Of a DNA stretch of 64,000 bases, positions 29,336-61,438 are shown one piece after another. The first letter of the stretch is position 1; each line of letters starts with the position of its first letter. A program made the position numbers and the translations under genes. The notes under the pieces are model-generated. The model was not told where the DNA came from. It ran no database searches and saw nothing but the letters and a program-made list of their open reading frames with translations. The stretch is from the NCBI RefSeq assembly GCF_053078305.1, contig NZ_CP166879.1; one strand, 5' to 3'.

Positions 29336-30301
29336 TCACACCTCGTACTCCATCTCGCCATCCTTACGCAGCGGTATAATCTGCACCTTCTGCACGCGAT
29401 GGCTTTCTACCTGCAACGTTTTAAGCAAATAATCCCCCACCTGAACTTCTTCGCCAGGTTTTGGAATACGCTGCAAATATTCCATCAACAGCCCGGCAAT
29501 GGTGTGATATTCACGTTTTTCATCCAGCGGCAGCGGCACATATTGCACCAGATCCTCCAGCGGCATATGACCATTCGCCGTCCAGGAACCGTCCGCATTC
29601 TTCTGAATATCATGGCGGGCGTCGATCTCTTCCACTTCGTTCGGTAAGTTACCGGCAATGGTTTCAGTGACGTCACTTAATGTCACAATCCCTTCCACCG
29701 AGCCAAACTCATCCACCACAAAAGCAAAGTGCGTGCGGGCATTACGGAACTGCTCCAGGGCAGGTAACAACGGCAAGGTTTCCGGGAACACCAGCGGCTG
29801 GCGAATCAACACCCGCAGGTTGAGCGGTTCGCCACGCAGAGACTGTTGTAGCAGGTCGATAACGTGAACAACACCGAGCAAATCTTCTGCGTCATCGCCA
29901 TCAGTAACCACCAGCCGCGTATGCTGATTTCGCTCCAGTAACTGGCGGATCTCGTCTTCCGGCGCGTTGAGATCGATATGCTCAATATCGTGGCGCGACG
30001 TCATAATGCTGCTGACGGTACGCTGGTTAAGATTAAGTACCCGCTCAATCATCCGCCGTTCCTGCGGATTAAAGATCTGCTGGTTACCATGATCCACCAG
30101 CATGGACGCGGTTTCGGCGTCCAGTTCCGCATCTTCTTTTTGCCCGCTAAGCAGGCGCATTACCGCTTCGGTAGTCCGCTGGCGCAGCGTCTGGTTAGCG
30201 GAAAGAAAACGTCGCCGGTTAAAGATAGCCAACTGATTGAGCGCCTCGATCATCACCGAGAAACCAATAGCAGCGTACAGGTAGCCTTTCGGAATGACGA
30301 A
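29336..30301 (-). pseudogene. yegH: yegH (TerC-CBS-CorC membrane protein) 3' fragment, truncated by prophage insertion
   Basis: Frame encodes ...GFVIPKGYLYAAIGFSVMIEALNQ... through C-terminus (~321 aa); upstream of 30301 the frame hits a stop and sequence becomes AT-rich prophage-end DNA. Confidence 0.8.
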
Positions 30302-30429: not shown

Positions 30430-31167
30430 TCATTCACTCTCTTTCAAACCAGTTTTAACTGTTTGTGGTTTTGGGTAAGGCTGGACTTTGAATAGCTTTG
30501 TGTTGAGGCGTTTTCTGGCCCTCTTGTTCAGAAACCGGATGTAACGAAACTGTCGGAACTTATGCACACTGGCTCTGTCGATATTAGCCCTCAGATGTTC
30601 ACCTCGTTGTCCGCCTCGTTTAATGGCATTCCTGCAAATCTCGTGATACCACTCGCCATCAAGTTCATAGAATGTTGATTCATGGCTGCCTACATAATCA
30701 AAATTGCTTGCCTGATACACGACACCAAGACAGCCACAACGCTCATCTGCAAACGACTGAACCCACTGTACCTGCGGATAAAGATGCCTGATTAGCTTGA
30801 GCGCGTAACTGATTGCCCTTGATTCGGAGTTTCTCGGCATACAGTCATGCATCCATAGCCGGTTAAGCTCCATATATTCTCGGTTCTGCGTACCCGTTAC
30901 GACGCGTGCACCACTGTTTGGGTTAAGGGCGTAACCCCATTGCATTACGCCAACAAGTTCCCGTTCTGAAAATATACCCAGATGAAGGTAGGAATTATTT
31001 ACGAAACGGTGGCTGTAATGTTTATTGACGATAACCAGTCTGGCCAGCCAGCAACTTATTGTCTCAACCCGCAACTCACGGGAGCCATAACCAACGATAT
31101 TGTCGTTATAGCGAATAAGTTCAGGCGTGCTGATGATTCGGGATGTGACTTGCTTTCTGTTCCCCAC
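30430..31167 (-). CDS. mom: Mom-like DNA modification protein (call by position and operon context; GTG start)
   Basis: 245-aa ORF last before prophage end, overlapping upstream com-like gene as in Mu com-mom; sequence identity to Mu Mom not verified. Confidence 0.55.
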
Positions 31168-31321
31168 GACAGGATTTCCTTGTGTATGTGGGGTGCTCTG
31201 TGGCGCTCGGAGATGTGATTTGATTGAGGGTTTTACAGCGCGGACATTTTACTTCCAGATAACTGAAACTGGCCCGTGCCAGTAGCTTATTGCAGTGTCG
31301 GCACCGTATGTTTCGATACAT
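31121..31321 (-). CDS. com: Com-like zinc-finger translational activator (66 aa from internal ATG)
   Basis: [32 protein letters not shown]... resembles Mu Com (C-x2-C...C-x2-C); AGGAGG upstream. Confidence 0.7.
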
Positions 31322-31368: not shown

Positions 31369-31542
31369 GATCGACAAAAACGATCGATTCGATTTGTTTA
31401 ATTGATACAACAAATAGATTGAAAAGTCATCAATAATGATTCAGGGAGGTGATTATTTACTTAAAGAAAACGAAGAGTTAGGTGGTGAAAATGATCATAA
31501 AATGATCATTTTATTGACTTTTTATACAGTGAAGGTAGGATC
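31369..31542. promoter_or_regulatory. GATC-rich region upstream of com-mom (5 GATC in ~175 bp), candidate Dam/OxyR-controlled promoter
   Basis: GATC at 31369, 31382, 31493, 31504, 31539; 10-bp inverted repeat ATGTAGTATG/CATACTACAT at ~31550-31588. Confidence 0.4.
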
Positions 31543-31730
31543 GCGCGTATATGTAGTATGTTTCAAATCAATGGGATACTACATACATAAAGGGCGACCC
31601 AGATAGCGCGAACTATTCTGGGCCGATTTAGACAATTTTGCATCAATGCTTTACTTCGAGCTCGTGGCGTATCCTATGATATTCCCCGGTCTCCTGTAAA
31701 GCAGAGATGCATAAAAAGGAGATCTTTATC

Positions 31731-31901
31731 ATGGATAAAGAGCCTGTTTGCCCTGCCTGTAAGACTCCCTTACAGCTCATCTATCGCCGTTCTCGATCTC
31801 AAAATGGCAAGACATACAAACCAAAAAATGCTTCCTGTTTCAGGATGCTGATATGTCCTGCCTGTTCTCCCCGGAGGGAAAATACACAAAACGTGCATTA
31901 A
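31731..31901 (+). CDS. small zinc-ribbon protein (56 aa), opposite strand to surrounding phage genes
   Basis: AAAGGAG RBS 7 nt upstream of ATG; MDKEPVCPACKTPL...LICPACSP. Confidence 0.35.
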   Translation: MDKEPVCPACKTPLQLIYRRSRSQNGKTYKPKNASCFRMLICPACSPRRENTQNVH

Positions 31902-31939
31902 CAAATTCACCCGGCAGGGAAACCTGCCGGTCGGTATTG

Positions 31940-32185
31940 TTACATCATAGTACCGTCAGTTCCGGGCTGAACCGGCTCTGGTTGCTCTACGGGTTGAGGC
32001 TCATTTTCCGTGCTGTTTTCAGCCGGAGAACGACCAACCATTCGGGCCAGCACTTCATCAACATATGCGTCGATTTGTGCCTCAAAATCCTTGCGAACCT
32101 GCGCCTTCAGCACGCGGTTCACTTCTTCAGAATAAAGTGCCTGTTTGACAAGCTCTTCAGTAACCGTGCCTTTAATCTCTGGCAT
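31940..32185 (-). CDS. hypothetical 81-aa acidic protein
   Basis: ORF-track entry; no recognisable motif. Confidence 0.4.
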   Translation of the reverse strand: MPEIKGTVTEELVKQALYSEEVNRVLKAQVRKDFEAQIDAYVDEVLARMVGRSPAENSTENEPQPVEQPEPVQPGTDGTMM

Positions 32186-32220
32186 GAATATTCTCCTTTC
32201 CTTTTCTGGTTCACAAAAAA

Positions 32221-32400
32221 TTAAATCTGACCGGAGTCTTTCGGCTGCGGCATTACAGCACCGCTTTTTATCTTTTCCTCGGCAGCTGCATCAATTTTAT
32301 TTCGAAAATAATTGCGAATAATTTTATAACCACCGCTGACAAGCAACAGACAACAAACCACCGTGCAGAAATACAGCAGGCAGACGTTTATATATGTCAT
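32221..32400 (-). CDS. hypothetical small hydrophobic protein (59 aa)
   Basis: My own translation (under 60 aa, not in ORF track): MTYINVCLLYFCTVVCCLLLVSGGYKIIRNYF...; GTGAGG RBS upstream. Confidence 0.3.
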   Translation of the reverse strand: MTYINVCLLYFCTVVCCLLLVSGGYKIIRNYFRNKIDAAAEEKIKSGAVMPQPKDSGQI

Positions 32401-32457
32401 ATAAGCCTCACTCTTATTAACTGATGTTACAGCCGGATAAATTCCCGGCCGTCACGA

Positions 32458-34515
32458 TTATGCCGCAGGGGTATTAACCTCAAGGACAACGCTCTCAAAA
32501 GACACGCCATAAGTTGCCCCTTTGGTGACATCTGTCAGTGTCAGCGTATCTTTGGCAGGGGAAAGTGCATCTTTCACCATCTGGAATGCCTGGCCCGGAG
32601 TGCCATCCAGCACAGGCGTTACCTGGGCACTTCCCGCAGTAAACTTCAGGACAAGTGTATGCCACTGGTTATTGTAGGCTCCAAATGATCCCAGTTTCGT
32701 ATTCCCCCCTGTTTTATGGTGCATCAGATTTAACTGGCCGCCTGTTGTCTGGAGATAATACGCCATCAGGAACGGTGTGCCTGTACCACTCATGGTTACA
32801 CCTTCCGGGACCGTATCGGTGTGGAGGTAAATACCCAGAGCAAACTGGCCTTCTTTTACTTCACCTGACAGACGGAATTTACAGGTCAACTGACCACCAT
32901 GCTTCAGAAGTTCACCGGCTGCATCAGTTCCATGGGTAAGCGTCCAGGTTTTTCCGCTTTGTTTGGATACGGTCAACGCTTTACCTTCGTCCGTCAGCTG
33001 GATTGTACCATCTGTAATTTTCCATCCCTGAGCCGGGGCTTCCCCTGCTGATGCTTTAAGTGAAAGCAGCGTACGGAGTGACGGGGATGTCGGCTGGGGG
33101 GACTCACTGCTTCCTGGCTGACTACCTGTCGGAGCTTCCGGTTTTCCACCCGGCGCGGGCTGAGGCAGGGCTTCACCATCAGGGGCCACACCGGCAATAA
33201 ATGCAGAGGTCAGACCTGCATATTTAAGAATTGCTGATGCAAAACGATCTGAGACCAGAAAACGGCGCGCCCAGGAGCTAAAATGGGTTGCCCTGGATGC
33301 TGTTGTCCAGTTGCCATCTCCCCGTGATTCCGCACCATAATACCCGGCAGAAGCGATATCCGGGTCGTGCTCCGGCAGGTTGGTCGCGGTTTTATTACCG
33401 AACTCATCGTGCATCAGTGGAACAAAGTGAATGTTCTCGGAAGCCCGGTTTTTATATCCGCTATAAATGGTTTCATATGCCGCCGGGTTCTTCTCTTTCC
33501 AGTCATAGGTTGTGTCACCACATAACCACGGCACACTGTCTGATGAACCACCAATACACTGACCGGAGAAAGCACCAAGATCCGCACGGAATTTTTTCAC
33601 CATCGCAGTAAACTGGGCACCATGCTGGGCCGGGGTCGCTTTAAGGTCTCCTTCCCCCTGAATCCATACGACAGATAACAGCACATTCTTTGGATTCGCC
33701 TCAAGTGCCGCTTTCGTTCGACTGACAAGATCCTGATACAGTGGGGTATCCACTCCCCAGCGTAGTGACGCCTCGGCTGCACCACTTGCCGGATCGAATG
33801 AGCCAACTGCGCCGGTTGTAAAAGCAGAGCCGCCACGGGCACAGGGAACCAGTAAAATCCCGGCATCAGCAGGAATCACCGGTAATACTTTTTTCGCAAT
33901 ATGAAGTCCCTGACCCACACAACCATACTGCCCTTTTTTCAGGTCTGCTTTTGGATGGTTCAGCAGACTCATATTCTGAACATCATGAAGGCAGTGATCT
34001 GCTGGAATGATTTCATTGTATTTGCAGGGAATACCCCCGGGGGTTTGTGTATTCCTGCGTGCCAGCTGCATAATACGTGGATCAGGACGATCATAAGAAT
34101 CCGGCAGGGGCAACCCTTCACCATAAGATGAAGCATTGGACTGACCGGCTATAACAATCACGTAATACCAGGAAGGGGAGCTGGAAGCCGTTTCATTTCC
34201 TGCCGGACGGGTATGTGTGTCAGCATTATCCCAGTCTGACGGTTCAGCAGTACCGGCAACATCAGCACTTAACGGAATGACAGCACCAATACCCGCTCCG
34301 GTAATTTCCACGTTCGGATCACCGGATACTGGCCTTACCCACAGGCAATCCCGTGTATTAAAACTGATGAGACAGTCAGCAAATGTCATTCCTCCTTTCG
34401 TTTCAGCCGGAGGAAAGGGAGCCTCAAGAAATGCCGCTGTACCACCGGAAACTTTAACGGTAAAGTTTCCGGGCATTGATGATAGTTGAACCCATTTGGA
34501 CGTCATAATATTCAT
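32458..34515 (-). CDS. SGNH/SASA-family carbohydrate esterase, NanS-p-like (putative sialate O-acetylesterase) with C-terminal lectin-like domain
   Basis: 685-aa ORF; VIVIAGQSNASSYGEG (GQSN block I), CARGGSAF, IQGEGD, DGNW...H blocks; Pro/Ser linker then beta-rich C-terminus. Confidence 0.55.
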   Translation of the reverse strand: MNIMTSKWVQLSSMPGNFTVKVSGGTAAFLEAPFPPAETKGGMTFADCLISFNTRDCLWVRPVSGDPNVEITGAGIGAVIPLSADVAGTAEPSDWDNADTHTRPAGNETASSSPSWYYVIVIAGQSNASSYGEGLPLPDSYDRPDPRIMQLARRNTQTPGGIPCKYNEIIPADHCLHDVQNMSLLNHPKADLKKGQYGCVGQGLHIAKKVLPVIPADAGILLVPCARGGSAFTTGAVGSFDPASGAAEASLRWGVDTPLYQDLVSRTKAALEANPKNVLLSVVWIQGEGDLKATPAQHGAQFTAMVKKFRADLGAFSGQCIGGSSDSVPWLCGDTTYDWKEKNPAAYETIYSGYKNRASENIHFVPLMHDEFGNKTATNLPEHDPDIASAGYYGAESRGDGNWTTASRATHFSSWARRFLVSDRFASAILKYAGLTSAFIAGVAPDGEALPQPAPGGKPEAPTGSQPGSSESPQPTSPSLRTLLSLKASAGEAPAQGWKITDGTIQLTDEGKALTVSKQSGKTWTLTHGTDAAGELLKHGGQLTCKFRLSGEVKEGQFALGIYLHTDTVPEGVTMSGTGTPFLMAYYLQTTGGQLNLMHHKTGGNTKLGSFGAYNNQWHTLVLKFTAGSAQVTPVLDGTPGQAFQMVKDALSPAKDTLTLTDVTKGATYGVSFESVVLEVNTPAA

Positions 34516-34605: not shown

Positions 34606-34910
34606 TTATTTTTCCGAAATGCTCGCAGGATAATAACGATAAAGGGTTGAAAGGCCGATATCAAAAATAAGTGCCACCTGTCTTCGGCTGACACCCCCGG
34701 CCAGTAAACGCCCGACCTGCTCGTATTGTTCCTGCGTGAGACGACGGGGTCTGCCGCCGGTTCGTCCCCTTTCACGGGCAGCTGCAAGACCAGCCCGTGT
34801 CCGTTCGACAATCAATTCACGCTCCATTTCTGCCAGCGCACCCATTATGTGAAAAAAGAAGCGCCCCATGGGGGTTGACGTATCAATGTTGTCAGTAAGA
34901 CTACGAAAAT
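34606..34910 (-). pseudogene. gin: gin/pin-family DNA invertase, C-terminal fragment (HTH domain)
   Basis: Encodes FRSLTDNIDTSTPMGRFFFHIMGALAEMERELIVERT...GGRPRRLT...; matches Gin from about residue 90 onward. Confidence 0.8.
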
Positions 34911-34996
34911 GTAAGCGTAAACTGACCGCCGTATGTAGCCATTAAGCCAGTATTGGTAACGTAGGTGCCCACCTTTTCAACTAGTGGACACCTGTT

Positions 34997-35422
34997 ATGG
35001 AACAGAAAATATTATCCTCAGAACCCCGCAGATCATTTTCAAATGAGTTTAAACTTCAAATGGTTAAACTGGCTTCACAACCAGGAGCCTCTGTTGCCCG
35101 TATTGCCCGGGAACACGATATCAATGATAACCTCCTGTTCAAATGGCTCAGGCTCTGGCAGAACGAAGGGCGTATATCGCGGCGTCTTCCGGTAACAACC
35201 TCTTCTGGCGCTGGCGTTGAATTATTACCTGTTGAGATAACGCCTGATGAGCAGAAAGAGCCTGTGGCGGCTCTTACTCCGCTTTTATCCACTCCTTCAC
35301 AAAGCACAGTCAGTGCCAGTTCCTGTAAAGTTGAGTTCCGCCACGGTAACATGACGCTGGAAAATCCTTCACCAGAGCTGCTCACGGTGTTGATCCGTGA
35401 ACTGACCGGGAGGGGACGATGA
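34997..35422 (+). CDS. tnpA: IS66 family accessory protein TnpA (orf1)
   Basis: 141-aa ORF with HTH-like N-terminus. Confidence 0.85.
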   Translation: MEQKILSSEPRRSFSNEFKLQMVKLASQPGASVARIAREHDINDNLLFKWLRLWQNEGRISRRLPVTTSSGAGVELLPVEITPDEQKEPVAALTPLLSTPSQSTVSASSCKVEFRHGNMTLENPSPELLTVLIRELTGRGR

Positions 35423-35769
35423 TCTCGCTCCCATCAGGCACTCGAATCTGGCTGGTTGCCGGCGTTACTGATATGCGTAAATCCTTCAACGGTCTGGGAG
35501 AACAGGTACAACATGTGCTGGATGAGAACCCCTTCTCCGGTCACCTGTTTATCTTTCGCGGCCGACGGGGTGACACGATTAAAATTCTGTGGGCTGATGC
35601 TGATGGTCTGTGCCTGTTCACCAAACGTCTGGAGGAAGGCCAGTTTATCTGGCCTGCGGTGCGTGACGGTAAGGTATCCATTACCCGCTCGCAGCTGGCA
35701 ATGCTCCTCGATAAACTGGACTGGCGTCAGCCCAAAACATCCCGCCTTAATGCACTGACAATGTTGTAA
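35419..35769 (+). CDS. tnpB: IS66 family protein TnpB (orf2)
   Basis: 116-aa ORF MISLPSGTRIWLVAGVTDMRKSFNGL...; 4-bp overlap with orf1. Confidence 0.9.
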   Translation: MISLPSGTRIWLVAGVTDMRKSFNGLGEQVQHVLDENPFSGHLFIFRGRRGDTIKILWADADGLCLFTKRLEEGQFIWPAVRDGKVSITRSQLAMLLDKLDWRQPKTSRLNALTML

Positions 35770-35799
35770 AAATGTCATGGCCGGATTATAAAAACGGTC

Positions 35800-37413
35800 A
35801 TGAGTCGGAAATACCTCATTCGTATCACTGAGCTGGAAAGGCTGCTCTCTGAGCAGGCTGAAGCCCTCCGTCAGAAAGATCAGCAACTGAGTCTGGTTGA
35901 AGAGACGGAGGCCTTCCTGCGCTCTGCACTGGCACGTGCCGAGGAAAAGATCGAAGAGGAGGAGCGGGAAATAGAACATCTGAGGGCCCAGATAGAAAAA
36001 CTGCGCCGGATGTTGTTCGGTACCCGTTCTGAAAAACTGCAGCGTGAGGTTGAACAGGCTGAGGCCCAACTGAAACAACGCGAACAGGAAAGCGATCGTT
36101 ACAGTGGGCGTGAGGATGACCCGCAGGTTCCCCGCCAGTTGCGACAGTCACGTCATCGTCGTCCGTTACCGGCACATCTTCCCCGTGAAATACACCGTCT
36201 GGAGCCTGAAGAAAGTTGTTGCCCGGAGTGTGGCAGTGAGCTGGATTATCTGGGGGAAGTCAGTGCTGAGCAGCTGGAACTGGTGAGTAGCGCCCTGAAA
36301 GTGATCCGCACTGTTCGGGTAAAAAAAGCCTGTACAAAATGTGACTGTATAGTTGAAGCGCCAGCGCCGTCCCGCCCGATAGAGCGCGGCATCGCGGGCT
36401 CCGGATTACTTGCCCGCGTGTTAACGGGAAAATACTGCGAACACCTGCCACTGTATCGTCAGAGTGAAATCTTTGCCCGCCAGGGCATCGAACTGAGCCG
36501 GGCATTACTCTCCAACTGGGTTGACGCATGTTGTCAGTTAATGACTCTGCTGAATGATACCCTGTACCGTTACGTGATGAACACCCGCAAGGTTCACACT
36601 GACGACACACCAGTAAAAGTGCTGGCAGCGGGCAGAAAAAAGGCAAAAACAGGACGCATCTGGACGTATGTCCGGGATGACCGGAATGCGGGCTCATCAG
36701 AGCCACCGGCGGTCTGGTTCGCCTACTCACCAGACAGGCAGGGAAAACATCCGGTACAACACCTTCGTCCCTTCCGGGGTATCCTGCAGGCGGATGCGTT
36801 CAGCGGTTACGATCGGCTGTTCAGTGCAGAACGTGAAGGTGGTGCACTGACAGAAGTTGCGTGCTGGGCCCATGCCCGGCGAAAAATCCACGATGTATAC
36901 ATCAGCAGCAAAAGTGCGACGGCAGAAGAAGCCCTGAAGCGAATCAGTGAACTGTACGCCATCGAGGATGAAATACGGGGATTACCGGAGTCAGAGCGTC
37001 TTGCCGTCAGGCAGCAGCGAAGCAAAGTGTTACTGACGTCACTGCATGAATGGATGGTGGAGAAGAATGGTACGCTGTCGAAAAAATCCAGACTGGGCGA
37101 AGCGTTCAGCTATGTACTGAATCAGTGGGATGCCCTCTGTTATTACAGTGATGACGGTCTGGCGGAGGCGGATAATAATGCTGCGGAAAGAGCGCTTCGT
37201 GCAGTCTGTCTCGGAAAGAAAAACTTTATGTTCTTTGGCAGCGATCACGGCGGCGAGCGTGGAGCACTGTTGTACGGGCTGATCGGCACCTGCCGTCTGA
37301 ACGGTATCGATCCGGAAGCGTATCTGCGCCATATCCTGAGCGTACTGCCAGAATGGCCTTCCAACCGAGTTGATGAACTCCTGCCATGGAACGTAGTACT
37401 CACCAATAAATAA
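35800..37413 (+). CDS. tnpC: IS66 family transposase TnpC (orf3)
   Basis: 537-aa ORF with leucine-zipper N-terminus, CxxC zinc motifs and DDE-type core. Confidence 0.9.
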   Translation: MSRKYLIRITELERLLSEQAEALRQKDQQLSLVEETEAFLRSALARAEEKIEEEEREIEHLRAQIEKLRRMLFGTRSEKLQREVEQAEAQLKQREQESDRYSGREDDPQVPRQLRQSRHRRPLPAHLPREIHRLEPEESCCPECGSELDYLGEVSAEQLELVSSALKVIRTVRVKKACTKCDCIVEAPAPSRPIERGIAGSGLLARVLTGKYCEHLPLYRQSEIFARQGIELSRALLSNWVDACCQLMTLLNDTLYRYVMNTRKVHTDDTPVKVLAAGRKKAKTGRIWTYVRDDRNAGSSEPPAVWFAYSPDRQGKHPVQHLRPFRGILQADAFSGYDRLFSAEREGGALTEVACWAHARRKIHDVYISSKSATAEEALKRISELYAIEDEIRGLPESERLAVRQQRSKVLLTSLHEWMVEKNGTLSKKSRLGEAFSYVLNQWDALCYYSDDGLAEADNNAAERALRAVCLGKKNFMFFGSDHGGERGALLYGLIGTCRLNGIDPEAYLRHILSVLPEWPSNRVDELLPWNVVLTNK

Positions 37414-37443
37414 GCGTCAATACGGTGCTCCGTTGACGCTTAC

Positions 37444-37705
37444 GAAAATTTATCCCCTGTTGCTGTAATTCATCTGTCAGCGCAACAAGGTGGCGCATAC
37501 TGCGCCCCAGCCTGTCCAGTTTCCAGACCATCAGCGTGTCACCGGGTTTTAGTTTCTTCAGTGCCCGCTTCAGTCCCGGCCGCTGCGTTGTTTTTCCGCT
37601 CATTTTATCTTCAAAAATCAGCTCACATCCTGCACATTCCAGCGCATTTCTTTGTAAACCTGTGTTCTGGTCATTTGTTGATACGCGTATATAGCCAATC
37701 AGCAT
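37444..37705 (-). pseudogene. gin: gin/pin-family DNA invertase, N-terminal fragment (catalytic Ser domain)
   Basis: MLIGYIRVSTNDQNTGLQRNALECAGCE...GDTLMVWKLDRLGRSMRHL...GINFR then IS-derived tail; ORF-track 37400..37705. Confidence 0.85.
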
Positions 37706-47845: not shown

Positions 47846-49348
47846 TCACAAAATGAAACGGATCTGTGCTGCCAGGAAGCGGAACTGGTTAACCAGATCC
47901 GGCGTGCATAACACGTCAAGACGGTTTCGATCTGACGCATTACGCTCCACAAGCAGATTCTTTTTAAAGGTGTCCAGATTTTCGACCAGCCCGAGTTCCA
48001 CCCACTCTTCACCCAGCGAAATTAACTGAAGCTTCATGATCTCCGGTGTCACGATATTCTGACCGGCACGAACGGGCGTCCCGTCATCAGCCAGTTTATG
48101 GCGCGGAAAACGTTGTGTGATAAAAGTACGCAGGGAATAACGCAGCCAGGAGAGGGTGTAGATGGTTTCCACATCCAGATAGCTGGGATCACTTTCGCCG
48201 TACACGTTCTGGCGATACATGGTCACCTGACGTTCGATCTGAACCACATCACCGGCAGCCACACTGACCGTGGCAATCCCTCCCCACAGCAGACTGTTAC
48301 GCTCTTCACGCGTCAGACGATCGGCCGGAGCCGGGGCCATGCGTGACGGAAGCGCCAGCGTCTGAAGCGGACGCGCAGGATCTGCTCCCAGAGAGGGTGC
48401 ACAGGTGGCGCAGACCGCCGCGGCCCAGAGGTAATCCGGTTCAGGGGCTTTGGGAATGGATGTGCAGGTCGCCAGAAAATCATTGCGTTTTGCCCCGAAT
48501 GCCTGCACCTCACCAAACGTGCCGGTATGTGCCAGCCACAGCACGCCGTCAGACATTTTGGCCGGTCCCCAGCGTTTCAGAAGCTCATCACTGATGATTT
48601 TCAGGTTTGCATCATCCTTATAGGGCATGACGACATAGTTGTACTGGCGATCGCCCATACCCGCCACGCTTCGGGTGATATCCGGGTTAGCCGCTTTTTG
48701 TTTCGGATAGGCTATAGCGACCTGTATTCCTTCCGGGGTTGCTTCCCCGTCGTGATAGTTCAGGCGCACATCATGCACGGAGCATTCACCGGTAAACCGG
48801 GCGGTGATCCCCAGAGACCCTTTCAGACCTGCGCCATTATCACCACTTCCTGCACCAGAGGAGGCCGTGAAGGGCGCGTCAGGATCGGCATTGATCAGCG
48901 CGGCCAGCTCGTCGGTCAGTTCTTTGCCTTTCTTACCTTTTGGTGCCGGGAGTGTATAACGTCGCCCCCCCACGCAGGCATAAACAATCCCGTCACGGGT
49001 GACCGTTCCGGTCAGATTCATGGCCGCAGCCGTTGCCTGTCCGGTGCCGTTCCCCTGAGCAATGGCATACAGTTCAGCATCAGGATTGATGGCGATAAAT
49101 TCCGCCACCATCAGGGCAATCATGGAGCCGCGCCCCCAGAGTTCTGTTGCCTGAGACGCACGGGTGATCCTGACCGGAACATCCAGAACACCGGTACCGT
49201 CCACGGCATTCTCTTTCATTCTCGCCTGACCAAACAGCAGTACACACTGACGCTGTGCCGGGGTGCCGGTGACAGCCATGGAGTTATTAAACTCAACCTC
49301 AATCAGCGGTATACGGCGGTCATTACCGATCCCGTCAAAATTAATCAT
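47846..49348 (-). CDS. tail sheath protein (Mu gp39/L-like)
   Basis: 500-aa ORF. Confidence 0.85.
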   Translation of the reverse strand: MINFDGIGNDRRIPLIEVEFNNSMAVTGTPAQRQCVLLFGQARMKENAVDGTGVLDVPVRITRASQATELWGRGSMIALMVAEFIAINPDAELYAIAQGNGTGQATAAAMNLTGTVTRDGIVYACVGGRRYTLPAPKGKKGKELTDELAALINADPDAPFTASSGAGSGDNGAGLKGSLGITARFTGECSVHDVRLNYHDGEATPEGIQVAIAYPKQKAANPDITRSVAGMGDRQYNYVVMPYKDDANLKIISDELLKRWGPAKMSDGVLWLAHTGTFGEVQAFGAKRNDFLATCTSIPKAPEPDYLWAAAVCATCAPSLGADPARPLQTLALPSRMAPAPADRLTREERNSLLWGGIATVSVAAGDVVQIERQVTMYRQNVYGESDPSYLDVETIYTLSWLRYSLRTFITQRFPRHKLADDGTPVRAGQNIVTPEIMKLQLISLGEEWVELGLVENLDTFKKNLLVERNASDRNRLDVLCTPDLVNQFRFLAAQIRFIL

Positions 49349-49590
49349 TGCGGTTTCTCCTTATCGGATGCCGGTTGGGCGACCGGTTTTTCTGTCGCAG
49401 TCGTTGCATCCGCAGATACAGCCGGAGCCTCTTCAGCGGCTTTTTCAGCCTGAATGACATCGCCGTCATCAAGACGCCGACACCAGAACGGCGTGAAGGG
49501 CTTTTCCTCCCCCTCCTGTGCCAGCGGGCGCATTGTGTCGGGATCACGAATCAGGCGTCCCGGCGCGGGTTTGATAAAGATGGTTTTCAT
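49345..49590 (-). CDS. Mu gp38-like small protein
   Basis: 81-aa ORF; synteny only. Confidence 0.5.
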   Translation of the reverse strand: MKTIFIKPAPGRLIRDPDTMRPLAQEGEEKPFTPFWCRRLDDGDVIQAEKAAEEAPAVSADATTATEKPVAQPASDKEKPQ

Positions 49591-50960: not shown

Positions 50961-51908
50961 TTACAGATAATCCGCGACAACCAGCTCCAGCTTGCCCTTC
51001 ATCTCGTTAGAGACGGTTGCGTTTCCGTCTGCGAACAGTTCACGCTCCAGCAGCTGCACCGCCTGTTTTTCCAGCGAGGTGGGGACAACAATATGGGTGG
51101 GTTTTATGCCTAATTTGCGGCCACCGTCAGCGGTAAATTCGCGCATGGCTGACCAGCCGTGCCACAGTGCATCCAGCGTCAGCGGTGACTGCATCATGTA
51201 GGCCATCTGCCAGAAGCCGTAGCCCACGTTGTGACGAACGGATGCACCGAACACAAACTCGTTATCAGTGAATGCGCGACCTTCATCAATTTTGGTCTGT
51301 GCAACCAGTTCAACCTTGCGGCGGCTCTGATAGATGATGGGTTTTATTGCACGGGAGCAGTCGAGCAGATACCAGGCCGGTCCGCTGTAATCCGCCTGTG
51401 CACCGACAGAGCCGGTTTTTGCCACAAACATGTTGCTGACCAGCGCCACATCACCGGTACCATCCACATTTGGGTAGACGGGGTGTTCGGTATCAAAGAA
51501 GTTCTGACCGTCGTAACACGCACTTTTCAGACCATCACGCAGAGCAGCAAATACAAGCTCATCCGGCTGAACAGCAGCGGCACGACCAAGCTCCTGAAAT
51601 AAAGGCGAGTAAATACCGAGATTATCGTCCTCAAAATCATCACGATTAACAGGGACGGTATCTTCCCAGGTCTTGTTTACAATGGAATAACCGTGCGCTT
51701 TCATTTTCTGGATCACACGAGAACCAATCCACTCACGAAAATGAGGCGCATGCCCCAGCCAGCCGTAGGTGTTGGATTTCGATGTGGAGGGCACGGTCAT
51801 CGCAATTTTTTTGTACTGCGACGGGGCCATGGACATCCCGGCCTGAAAATCAGAACGGTAGCCCGTCATCAGGGCGGTGATCATCGCCGGTGTAATCGGG
51901 GTAGGCAT
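50961..51908 (-). CDS. major capsid protein (Mu T-like)
   Basis: 315-aa ORF; gene order after I. Confidence 0.85.
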   Translation of the reverse strand: MPTPITPAMITALMTGYRSDFQAGMSMAPSQYKKIAMTVPSTSKSNTYGWLGHAPHFREWIGSRVIQKMKAHGYSIVNKTWEDTVPVNRDDFEDDNLGIYSPLFQELGRAAAVQPDELVFAALRDGLKSACYDGQNFFDTEHPVYPNVDGTGDVALVSNMFVAKTGSVGAQADYSGPAWYLLDCSRAIKPIIYQSRRKVELVAQTKIDEGRAFTDNEFVFGASVRHNVGYGFWQMAYMMQSPLTLDALWHGWSAMREFTADGGRKLGIKPTHIVVPTSLEKQAVQLLERELFADGNATVSNEMKGKLELVVADYL

Positions 51909-53041: not shown

Positions 53042-53216
53042 ACCGGCAGCATAAGCCGGGAATTTTCAGGGCGGGTTTTGCGGGATTTCAGGAAGTATTT
53101 TCAGGGAAAAATGCAAAGGCGCTTCACGCAGATTTTAAAGCCCGTTAAATACAGGTTAGAAAATCACGACACGCGCCTGAAGGGGGTAAGGTAATGCATT
53201 TGCATACCTTAAACAA

Positions 53217-60941: not shown

Positions 60942-61012
60942 TGTTACGCTGTCTCATGATGTTCTCTGAGTCAGCGTAACGGTGAAGGAGAGGCGGCAGG
61001 CTTTGCGGAATA

Positions 61013-61438
61013 TCAGAAAAGTGGCGGTTGCGTTCTTGCCAGATGCAGACGGCGCTGTTCACGTATGACGGTATAAATCTGGGTTTCTGACATCCGGTAA
61101 TGGCGGCGAAGGGATTCAATCTTCTCGCCCCGGTCCCAGCGCGAAAATATCTCATTGTTTCGCAGCTCGGCAAAGAGAGATTCCCCGACCGGCAGGTAAT
61201 AACCCCGTCCGCCCATATAGGCTGCCTGAGCCGCAGCCACCTTGCGTGCCAGTTTACCGGCCAGTACCGGCTCAATCCCCTGACGCTGAAGTTCTGCGCC
61301 GGTGACTTCAACCAGTTCTGACAGGGTCCGCGGCCAGTTCTTTTTGAGAACATCATCAGGGATGTCATCAAGGCGGTCGATAAGGGCGTGCAGTTGCTCA
61401 CTGTCACCACCAAACATGCTCATCTGAGTTTCTGCCAT
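61013..61438 (-). CDS. Mor/C-family transcription activator (middle/late operon regulator)
   Basis: 141-aa ORF with C-terminal HTH; located between early genes and lysis genes. Confidence 0.8.
   Translation of the reverse strand: MAETQMSMFGGDSEQLHALIDRLDDIPDDVLKKNWPRTLSELVEVTGAELQRQGIEPVLAGKLARKVAAAQAAYMGGRGYYLPVGESLFAELRNNEIFSRWDRGEKIESLRRHYRMSETQIYTVIREQRRLHLARTQPPLF

Follow-up and report, generated by a model that had tools for sequence, protein, structure and literature searches.

Within a Mu-like prophage of the 64,000-nucleotide stretch analysed here (the window; contig NZ_CP166879.1, NCBI RefSeq assembly GCF_053078305.1), the block at positions 31,731 to 34,515, between gin and the com-mom pair, encodes a protein that homology assigns to the NanS/NanS-p family of sialate O-acetylesterases. 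We regard it as highly likely that this block is the sialate-esterase module of Sp18-type prophages, in which an N-terminal domain is linked to the phage backbone and the cassette behind it has been exchanged. NanS-p esterases are thought to help Escherichia coli strains that produce Shiga toxin (STEC) to feed on O-acetylated mucin sialic acids. A transposable Mu-like lineage that is common in STEC (O157:H7 included) encodes an enzyme of this family behind an N-terminal domain of its own; this represents one further nanS-p copy, missed by counts limited to lambdoid prophages, and yields a testable model of a phage-specific anchor with an exchangeable payload. The advance is modest because the enzyme is ordinary and the block was reportedly sequenced together with Sp18 in 2001. 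Two features are new relative to earlier knowledge: DUF1737, the N-terminal domain of lambdoid NanS-p proteins, is replaced by a backbone-linked beta domain, and the pattern of cassette swapping is clean. One NanS-p esterase is reported in a 2026 preprint to be a capsid decoration protein as well (bioRxiv 10.64898/2026.04.10.717836).

A NanS-p-family esterase between gin and com

The preliminary description of this DNA, made from its sequence alone, had listed four open reading frames (ORFs) of 685, 59, 81 and 56 aa in the block, and all four were located (Table 1). In a Pfam search the 685-aa protein matched SASA over residues 119-315 (E 7.5e-13) and DUF6645 over residues 537-647 (E 2e-25). 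Residues 108-432 align end-to-end with E. coli NanS (YjhS; PDB 3PT5) at ~65% identity (phmmer E 3.7e-110), and residues 481-682 match the crystallised C-terminal domain of a NanS-p protein (PDB 6YP6; E 1e-41). The ORF also matched phrog_143 (E 2e-273), and tblastn recovered nanS-p genes at ~50-61% identity from 353 phage records, mostly of Shiga toxin (Stx)-converting phages. These matches bear out the earlier description of the protein as a NanS-p-like SASA/SGNH esterase with a lectin-like C-terminus, and its NCBI names are already 'sialate O-acetylesterase' or 'DUF6645 domain-containing protein'. NCBIfam and PADLOC gave no matches for any ORF of the block. A single-sequence AlphaFold model of the full 685-aa protein had a mean predicted local distance difference test score (pLDDT) of 32, and the catalytic and lectin domains were assigned by sequence match to solved structures.

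We take Ser19 and His301 of NanS to be its catalytic residues. Aligned with NanS and with L0105 of phage 933W, the window protein keeps the family blocks AGQSN, which holds the nucleophile Ser, CARGGS, QGEGD and RATH, which holds the His. The nucleophile is Ser123 of the 682-aa form of the protein described below, or Ser126 in the 685-aa numbering. Three of the motifs named in the preliminary description (GQSN, CARGGS and GEGD) are present, and the fourth, a D..H block, is not the one that matters. In place of the canonical SGNH block V D-x-x-H, which supplies the Asp and His of the Ser-His-Asp triad, the esterase has the histidine block R-A-T-H; the corresponding block of NanS and NanS-p is R-x-x-H (RSSH/RASH), as set out where the family sequence blocks were defined (PMC10462455).

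The second ATG, at 34506, is the more likely start of the esterase and gives a protein of 682 aa beginning MTSKW. It has AGGA 8 nt upstream, and the homologous ORFs of two further loci (L001 and L004) begin at this same point. Trp5 is invariant among divergent homologues, and the later start at Met14 chosen by RefSeq is therefore disfavoured. Inspection of the N-terminus revealed no signal peptide.

On the minus strand, which corresponds to Mu left-to-right, the order of genes is the G-segment tail-fibre genes, a split gin, the esterase, the 59-aa and 81-aa ORFs, com and mom. Two ORF pieces on the opposite (+) strand span 31436-31901, between the 81-aa ORF and com. In phage Mu a gap of 94 bp, with nothing in it but Pmom, separates the end of gin (35673) from the start of com (35768). 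The gin stop of the window lies at 34606 and com starts at ~31321, so that ~3.3 kb is interposed, as the preliminary description had proposed; the block that it held to be missing from canonical Mu is indeed absent there. For the related phage SfMu, a gin-mom PCR product of 1.5 kb has been reported, which fits a compact Mu-like layout (PMC4406740).

The block had been presented as unusual cargo, a view that did not survive comparison with other genomes. The order gin-esterase-DUF1378-DUF826-...-com-mom (DUF1378 and DUF826 being the families of the 59-aa and 81-aa ORFs) was present in five of five annotated genomes, with at least four esterase alleles, and the block occupies the same position in every Sp18-type prophage examined, including that of the O157:H7 Sakai type, and in a Salmonella relative. 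The whole gin-to-mom stretch occurs at ≥98.6% identity in 42 of 5,426 complete E. coli genomes, mostly STEC and including O157:H7. These 42 genomes carry it at many different chromosomal sites, once on a plasmid, as expected of a transposable phage. The com-proximal 551 bp and the DUF826 allele of the window are more widespread, being found in ~200-216 of the 5,426 genomes (~4%; 206 genomes for the DUF826 allele). An intact esterase ORF is found in hundreds of genomes and is common to four deeply diverged alleles. Sp18 is a Mu-like prophage of O157:H7 Sakai that is predicted to be intact (PMC2669165), and the block is placed in it because of the name ECs_4996, given to a gene of the block in that strain. 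In Salmonella enterica, a Mu-like prophage carries a distant esterase homologue, with 25-28% identity in the N-terminal domain; its gene is preceded by gin and two small ORFs and closes the Mu-type tail/baseplate cluster. The block is thus a lineage-wide standard module of Sp18-type Mu-like prophages and is absent from Mu. Among the full texts searched, no paper linked NanS-p to Mu-like prophages or mentioned ECs4993-4996.

The N-terminal beta domain and cassette exchange

The preliminary description had expected a DUF1737 domain in the esterase, but the Pfam search returned no DUF1737 match. An AlphaFold model built with a four-sequence alignment instead predicts that residues 1-78 form an all-beta domain of five strands (pLDDT 75-89), followed by a disordered linker at about residues 80-110. 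The N-terminal domain shares 18-21% identity with the N-termini of lambdoid NanS-p proteins, and its predicted all-beta fold contrasts with DUF1737, which consists of one helix and three strands. On this modelling, the position of DUF1737 is taken by an unrelated, all-beta domain of ~80 aa. In phage phi24B, DUF1737 binds the capsid as a hexamer on central hexons, and the enzyme part of its protein gp84 is cleaved off at linkers that contain Ser-Ser-Pro; across its distribution DUF1737 is mostly a stand-alone protein (bioRxiv 10.64898/2026.04.10.717836).

Sequence searches with the N-terminal domain returned little beyond its own family. A HMMER scan of 1.84 billion representative proteins found it only at the front of NanS-like proteins, apart from one low-complexity repeat protein that was discounted, and word-indexed searches retrieved only partial entries from E. 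coli, Shigella sonnei and Salmonella. A scan of genome contigs yielded no homologue, and no other ORF of the window or of the compared loci matched it. Fold comparison of the model with the PDB gave weak cupin-like barrels only, and comparison with viral structures in BFVD gave only unnamed phage proteins of ~90 aa (E ≥0.01). With Foldseek in AFDB50 the first matches were to its own family, including a 777-aa Salmonella 'sialate O-acetylesterase'. Below these, at E 1e-3 to 5e-2 and a template modelling score of 0.65-0.77 on the target, came many small proteins (75-83 aa) that stand alone; they belong to Salmonella, Citrobacter, Morganella, Pantoea and E. coli, and UniProt A0A2U3ERC9 and A0A2P5GQN2 are examples. 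Two of these small proteins bear phage labels, a Shewanella oneidensis 'Mu phage uncharacterized protein' (Q8EDQ7, in a Mu-like prophage) and one 'phage tail protein'. A shared W-[IVC]-R-R-x-x-x-G-D/E-V motif prompted us to consider an origin of the domain from Mu gp38/DUF2635, a homologue of which the window prophage encodes at 49345-49590. This origin was rejected, with an hhalign probability of 3% against an alignment of 27 DUF2635 sequences.

The proportion of non-synonymous differences (pN) lies far below that of synonymous differences (pS) in every domain of the esterase. For the N-terminal domain, compared with the FORC_029 allele, pN is 0.24 and pS 0.79, which corresponds to purifying selection equal in strength to that acting on the catalytic domain.

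Comparison of the window with the prophage of O157:H7 FRIK804 revealed three zones. From gin to ~34190, where the linker ends, the two DNAs are 97-100% identical; identity falls to 30-75% from ~34190 to 32185, across the catalytic domain, the lectin domain and the DUF1378 gene, and returns to 98-100% from the DUF826 start codon to mom. The DUF1378 gene accordingly belongs to the diverged, swapped segment and the DUF826 gene to the conserved Mu-type backbone. A second, independent breakpoint, between the window and STEC1587, lies at the start of the linker between the N-terminal and catalytic domains. Of four E. coli alleles, three have N-terminal domains with 99-100% identity, against 58% for the fourth. 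The catalytic domains of the same alleles share 64-70% pairwise identity and are no closer to one another than to lambdoid alleles; their lectin domains share 36-73%, with individual alleles resembling different lambdoid types. At the DNA level the cassette of the Sakai type shares 78-81% identity with lambdoid nanS-p, a likeness that begins exactly at the start of the catalytic domain, and the cassette of the window is ~67-68% identical to lambdoid nanS-p. No recent lambdoid donor of the window cassette was found in the 5,426 E. coli genomes or the phage collection, where the best matches were 60-80% identical. Throughout this repeated replacement the reading frame was kept. Together these alignments indicate that the N-terminal domain and DUF826 are fixed with the Mu backbone, and that recombination within the linker has several times exchanged the cassette of catalytic domain, lectin domain and DUF1378 that lies between them.

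Neighbouring genes, prophage copies and transcription

Table 1. Features of the block and its surroundings in the window
Feature	Position	Strand	Basis or remark
NanS-p-family esterase ORF	32458..34515	-	685 aa from first ATG, 682 aa from likely start ATG 34506; Pfam, PDB and PHROG matches
N-terminal all-beta domain (predicted), residues 1-80 counted from MTSKW	34267..34506	-	AlphaFold (AF2) model; no Pfam match; in place of DUF1737
Disordered Ser/Thr/Pro/Asp-rich linker, residues 81-111, ending ...ASSSPS before the catalytic domain	34174..34266	-	pLDDT <50
NanS-like SGNH/SASA catalytic domain, residues 112-432	33211..34173	-	Alignment to NanS 3PT5 and 933W L0105; family sequence blocks
Pro/Ser linker before the lectin-like domain	33073..33210	-	
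Lectin-like jelly-roll domain (DUF6645), residues 479-682	32461..33072	-	Pfam DUF6645 E 2e-25; 6YP6 match
DUF1378 gene, 59 aa	32221..32400	-	phrog_494 E 4e-29; RefSeq name of homologue
DUF826 gene, 81 aa, acidic	31940..32185	-	phrog_311 E 5e-30; RefSeq name of homologue
GC-rich hairpin, CCGGCAGG-TTTC-CCTGCCGG	31911..31930	no strand	RNA fold -21.2 kcal/mol, z -3.3
Frameshifted remnant of 154-aa gene (Sakai ECs_4996 homologue)	31436..31901	+	DNA alignment to intact homologue
com, translational activator of mom	31121..31321	-	phrog_13819, phrog_6417; RefSeq 'Com family' at homologous position
mom	30430..31167	-	phrog_1384 E 1e-83; 79.5% identical to Mu Mom
gin, 3' part, immediately upstream of esterase	34606..34910	-	blastn matches to Mu gin and intact gin of locus L004
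IS66-family element splitting gin	34911..37442	+	Three transposase-type ORFs; terminal ends; direct repeat
gin, 5' part	37443..37705	-	ORF and blastn matches

The 59-aa and 81-aa ORFs, to which no function could be assigned in the preliminary description, are members of DUF1378 and DUF826 by their PHROG and RefSeq matches. The DUF1378 protein is a small membrane protein with a single N-terminal hydrophobic helix. In Stx phages both families have been reported from the interval that separates nanS-p from the holin gene S (PMC10462455), and phage PhiR12_2 has the order esterase, 60-aa ORF, DUF826-like ORF and S. Because DUF1378 and DUF826 follow nanS-p there too, we identify esterase-DUF1378-DUF826, by these family assignments, as the same three-gene module as in the lambdoid late region.

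The 56-aa ORF runs from the ATG at 31731 to 31901 on the plus strand, nested in a 64-aa ORF that starts at 31707. In keeping with the strong ribosome-binding site given in the preliminary description, AAGGAG lies 8 nt upstream of the ATG; in the intact homologue, however, these letters are internal coding sequence. It forms the C-terminal third of a frameshifted gene and aligns to codons 100-154 of an intact 154-aa ORF. That gene is whole in O157:H7 FRIK804, and one source names it ECs_4996 of strain Sakai. Its frame is broken twice, by an indel patch and a 1-nt deletion, both in the window and in two prophages that are nearly identical; RefSeq flags it as 'frameshifted' in those two. The intact 154-aa protein had no Pfam or PADLOC match. 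Genes of the ECs_4996 type (intact at 4537-5001 of L004) have ~39% G+C, are divergent from com and end in a CPAC-x26-CPAC zinc ribbon; they are intact in more than 1,000 contigs and frameshifted in the lineage that carries the esterase allele of the window. FORC_029 (L025, 4498-4698) and STEC1587 (L026, 4578-4778) have an additional 66-aa hypothetical gene between DUF826 and the ECs_4996-type remnant. The hairpin at 31911-31930 lies between the converging ends of the DUF826 gene and the plus-strand ORF and is probably a two-way transcription stop; in a terminator scan it failed the T-run rule.

The right end of the prophage, at ~30400, abuts a truncated yegH-like ORF downstream of dcd-asmA, and the adjoining host DNA (dcd, asmA and the yegH-like ORF at 29336-30256) is a segment of the E. 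coli chromosome. Homologues of Mu C, lys, G, I, T and N are all present in the window, with the C activator at 61016-61426, the major capsid protein at 50961-51908 on the minus strand and the sheath at 47846-49348. The IS66-family element, an insertion sequence (IS) of ~2.53 kb, has the ends GTAAGCG...CGCTTAC and a direct repeat of ~8 bp (ACGAAAAT). With this element within gin, the G segment of this prophage copy should no longer be able to invert.

Other copies of the same prophage lie in unrelated genes, namely an Ig-like adhesin gene, sites near prpE and near gabP, elf fimbrial genes and paa genes, such varied sites being expected for transposition. Strain 8479 has a full gin-to-mom copy on a 167-kb plasmid (NZ_CP074995.1, 103277-107774) in addition to a chromosomal one, and some genomes have up to four or five matching places for the block. 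In LC727881.1 (L001; likewise LC727895.1) the Mu-like phage has transposed into a Stx2c phage or Stx-converting prophage. At 4963-6214 of L001, com is followed by a 350-aa ORF resembling a cytosine-C5 DNA methyltransferase in place of mom. The two ORFs between gin and the esterase of Salmonella GCA_037428405.1 (L006, 9426-9910) encode a 58-aa protein that has a hydrophobic helix at its C-terminus and an 87-aa protein of helix-turn-helix-like appearance.

We infer that transcription either reaches the esterase from gin by read-through or begins at a late promoter. In the ~100 nt that separate the esterase from gin, nothing resembling a terminator was found; in this window the IS would cut off any read-through that begins at the gin promoter. 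The equivalents of Plys and PI in the window phage share the box ATxTCCGCAAARCCYGCC, which is probably the late-promoter (C-activator) site of this Mu-like phage; an equivalent of PP was not recognisable. Its copies upstream of the lys and I homologues, ATATTCCGCAAAGCCTGCC and AAATCCCGCAAAACCCGCC, lie at 60995-61013 and 53070-53088 of the window on the minus strand. A T-T-A-x-G-C hexamer follows 15 nt after the box, or 21 nt after its CGCAAAR core, and the box differs from the ATAACCCC-type box of Mu. The nanS-p gene of 933W (z1466) is among the late genes most strongly up-regulated upon prophage induction (PMC8065619).

Proposed function and relation to known systems

Assayed NanS-p enzymes, which are lambdoid alleles, remove O-acetyl groups from Neu5,9Ac2 and mucin O-glycans and so support growth (PMC8065619). 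By analogy, the Ser of AGQSN and the His of RATH would take the 9-O-acetyl group off mucin sialic acids, with the C-terminal lectin-like domain keeping the enzyme on glycans, and de-acetylation would free Neu5Ac for sialidases and the E. coli nan pathway. Because the protein lacks a signal peptide, it would act outside the cell either after phage-induced, Mu-type lysis or on particles.

Several observations weigh against a functional sialate-esterase module of this kind. Esterase activity is assigned to the Mu-type alleles by sequence kinship with assayed relatives. The lectin domain of the window allele is divergent, being 61% identical to the lambdoid Stx1a_EH2115 type and 41% to the 933W/phi24B type that was crystallised; of the proposed sugar-binding aromatics Y510, Y515, Y540 and F611, the window domain has Phe, Tyr, Tyr and a gap (two kept, one changed to Phe and one deleted), and its glycan specificity may differ. 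A sigma-70 scan for an esterase promoter gave nothing above chance, and the leader of the gene matches the late box only in part, with CGCAAAA, 21 nt and TATGAT at the spacing of Plys and PI but without the CCYGCC half. Finally, the IS-split gin and the frameshifted 154-aa gene suggest that this prophage copy may be decaying. This last point would also fit a passive relic, that is, a functionless lambdoid late fragment captured once by an ancestral Mu-like phage, with an N-terminus that is read-through of the junction. We consider such a relic very unlikely. The ORF is intact in hundreds of genomes and across four deeply diverged alleles, pN is far below pS in every domain, the N-terminal domain included, and cassettes have been replaced repeatedly with the frame preserved. 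Moreover, the N-terminal domain folds with fair confidence in the model and is conserved in Salmonella at ~25-35% identity.

A role in phage infection rather than in host nutrition also has to be weighed. Here the enzyme would strip O-acetyl groups from O-antigen or capsule, for example O-acetylated polysialic acid, and expose a receptor, as an accessory to the adjacent host-range genes of the tail fibre and G segment. The gene does directly follow the cluster of tail fibre, invertible segment and gin, its lectin domains vary strongly between alleles, as is typical of receptor-binding parts, and a function of this kind has been suggested as possible for NanS-p (PMC8065619). However, the catalytic domain is very close (~65% identity) to chromosomal NanS, a catabolic sialate esterase, the NanS-p enzymes tested were active on free Neu5,9Ac2 and mucin glycans (PMC8065619), and no tail-fibre-like or baseplate-binding sequence was detected in the protein with PHROG or Pfam. 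We therefore judge an infection role improbable, though less so than a relic.

The sialate-esterase reading can be extended by a proposal for the N-terminal domain, which we put forward only tentatively. The domain might be a virion adaptor that fixes the esterase to the Mu-type head or tail, the enzyme being later cleavable in the Ser/Pro linker. In phi24B gp84, DUF1737 is a capsid-binding hexamer from which the enzyme is processed off (bioRxiv 10.64898/2026.04.10.717836), and the beta domain sits in the exact position of DUF1737, ahead of a disordered linker containing SSSP. It has remained on the Mu backbone while cassettes were swapped at least three times, and has done so in Salmonella too; purifying selection acts on it, and its fold recurs in stand-alone proteins of 75-83 aa, one labelled 'Mu phage' and one 'phage tail protein', echoing stand-alone DUF1737. 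Set against this, the structures that resemble its fold do so weakly (E 1e-3 to 5e-2) and include no known decoration or tail-accessory protein, the one candidate family tested, DUF2635/Mu gp38, is unrelated (hhalign probability 3%), and the late promoter expected for the esterase is only partly matched. Position, backbone linkage, selection and analogy thus point to a phage-type-specific adaptor as a possibility, one that we hold to be doubtful. Equally speculative is the generalisation that NanS-p-type esterases are modular, virion-displayed enzymes, each joining a phage-type-specific N-terminal adaptor (DUF1737 for lambdoid, phi24B-like capsids and the beta domain for Mu-type phages) to an exchangeable enzyme-lectin payload. 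If true, Sp18-type Mu-like phages would be myoviruses decorated with a mucin sialate esterase, and unrelated phage lineages could exchange payloads by recombining within the linker.

A backbone-linked sialate-esterase module remains the reading that we prefer, and it can be set beside four known systems. Lambdoid NanS-p proteins (933W L0105/z1466 and phi24B vb_24B_21/gp84) share with the window protein the SASA domain with its Ser and R-x-x-H blocks, the DUF6645 lectin domain, Ser/Pro-rich linkers, downstream DUF1378 and DUF826 genes and the absence of a signal peptide; identity to 933W amounts to 68% in the catalytic domain and 41% in the lectin domain. They differ in having a DUF1737 N-terminus, where the window protein has the unrelated ~80-aa domain predicted to be all-beta, and in their position between Q/stx and the holin gene S (933W, PhiR12_2) rather than between gin and com-mom. 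Their host phages are lambdoid, whereas that of the window is a transposable Mu-like myovirus. Chromosomal NanS (YjhS, 3PT5) corresponds end-to-end to the catalytic domain, with the AGQSN Ser and the histidine block conserved, but has only that one domain (~326 aa) and belongs to the nan regulon; the window protein is phage-borne and adds the N-terminal beta domain, two linkers and the lectin domain.

Mu, D108 and SfMu have the same order of S/U, G segment, gin, com and mom on one strand at the right end, and their Mom proteins are 78-80% identical to that of the window. Mu differs in its 94-bp interval with Pmom between gin and com, in lacking the esterase, DUF1378, DUF826 and ECs_4996-like genes, and in gin/mom DNA that is ~71% identical. 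The fourth system is Sp18 of Sakai, which has the same backbone and the layout gin-esterase-DUF1378-DUF826-ECs_4996-com-mom. The FRIK804 copy of this type agrees with the window at 99% identity in the N-terminal domain and at 98-100% in DUF826, com and mom, whereas its cassette is a different allele, with 67% protein identity in the catalytic and 41% in the lectin domain. Relative to Sp18, the window prophage has a gin that carries an IS66-family element and an ECs_4996 homologue that is frameshifted.

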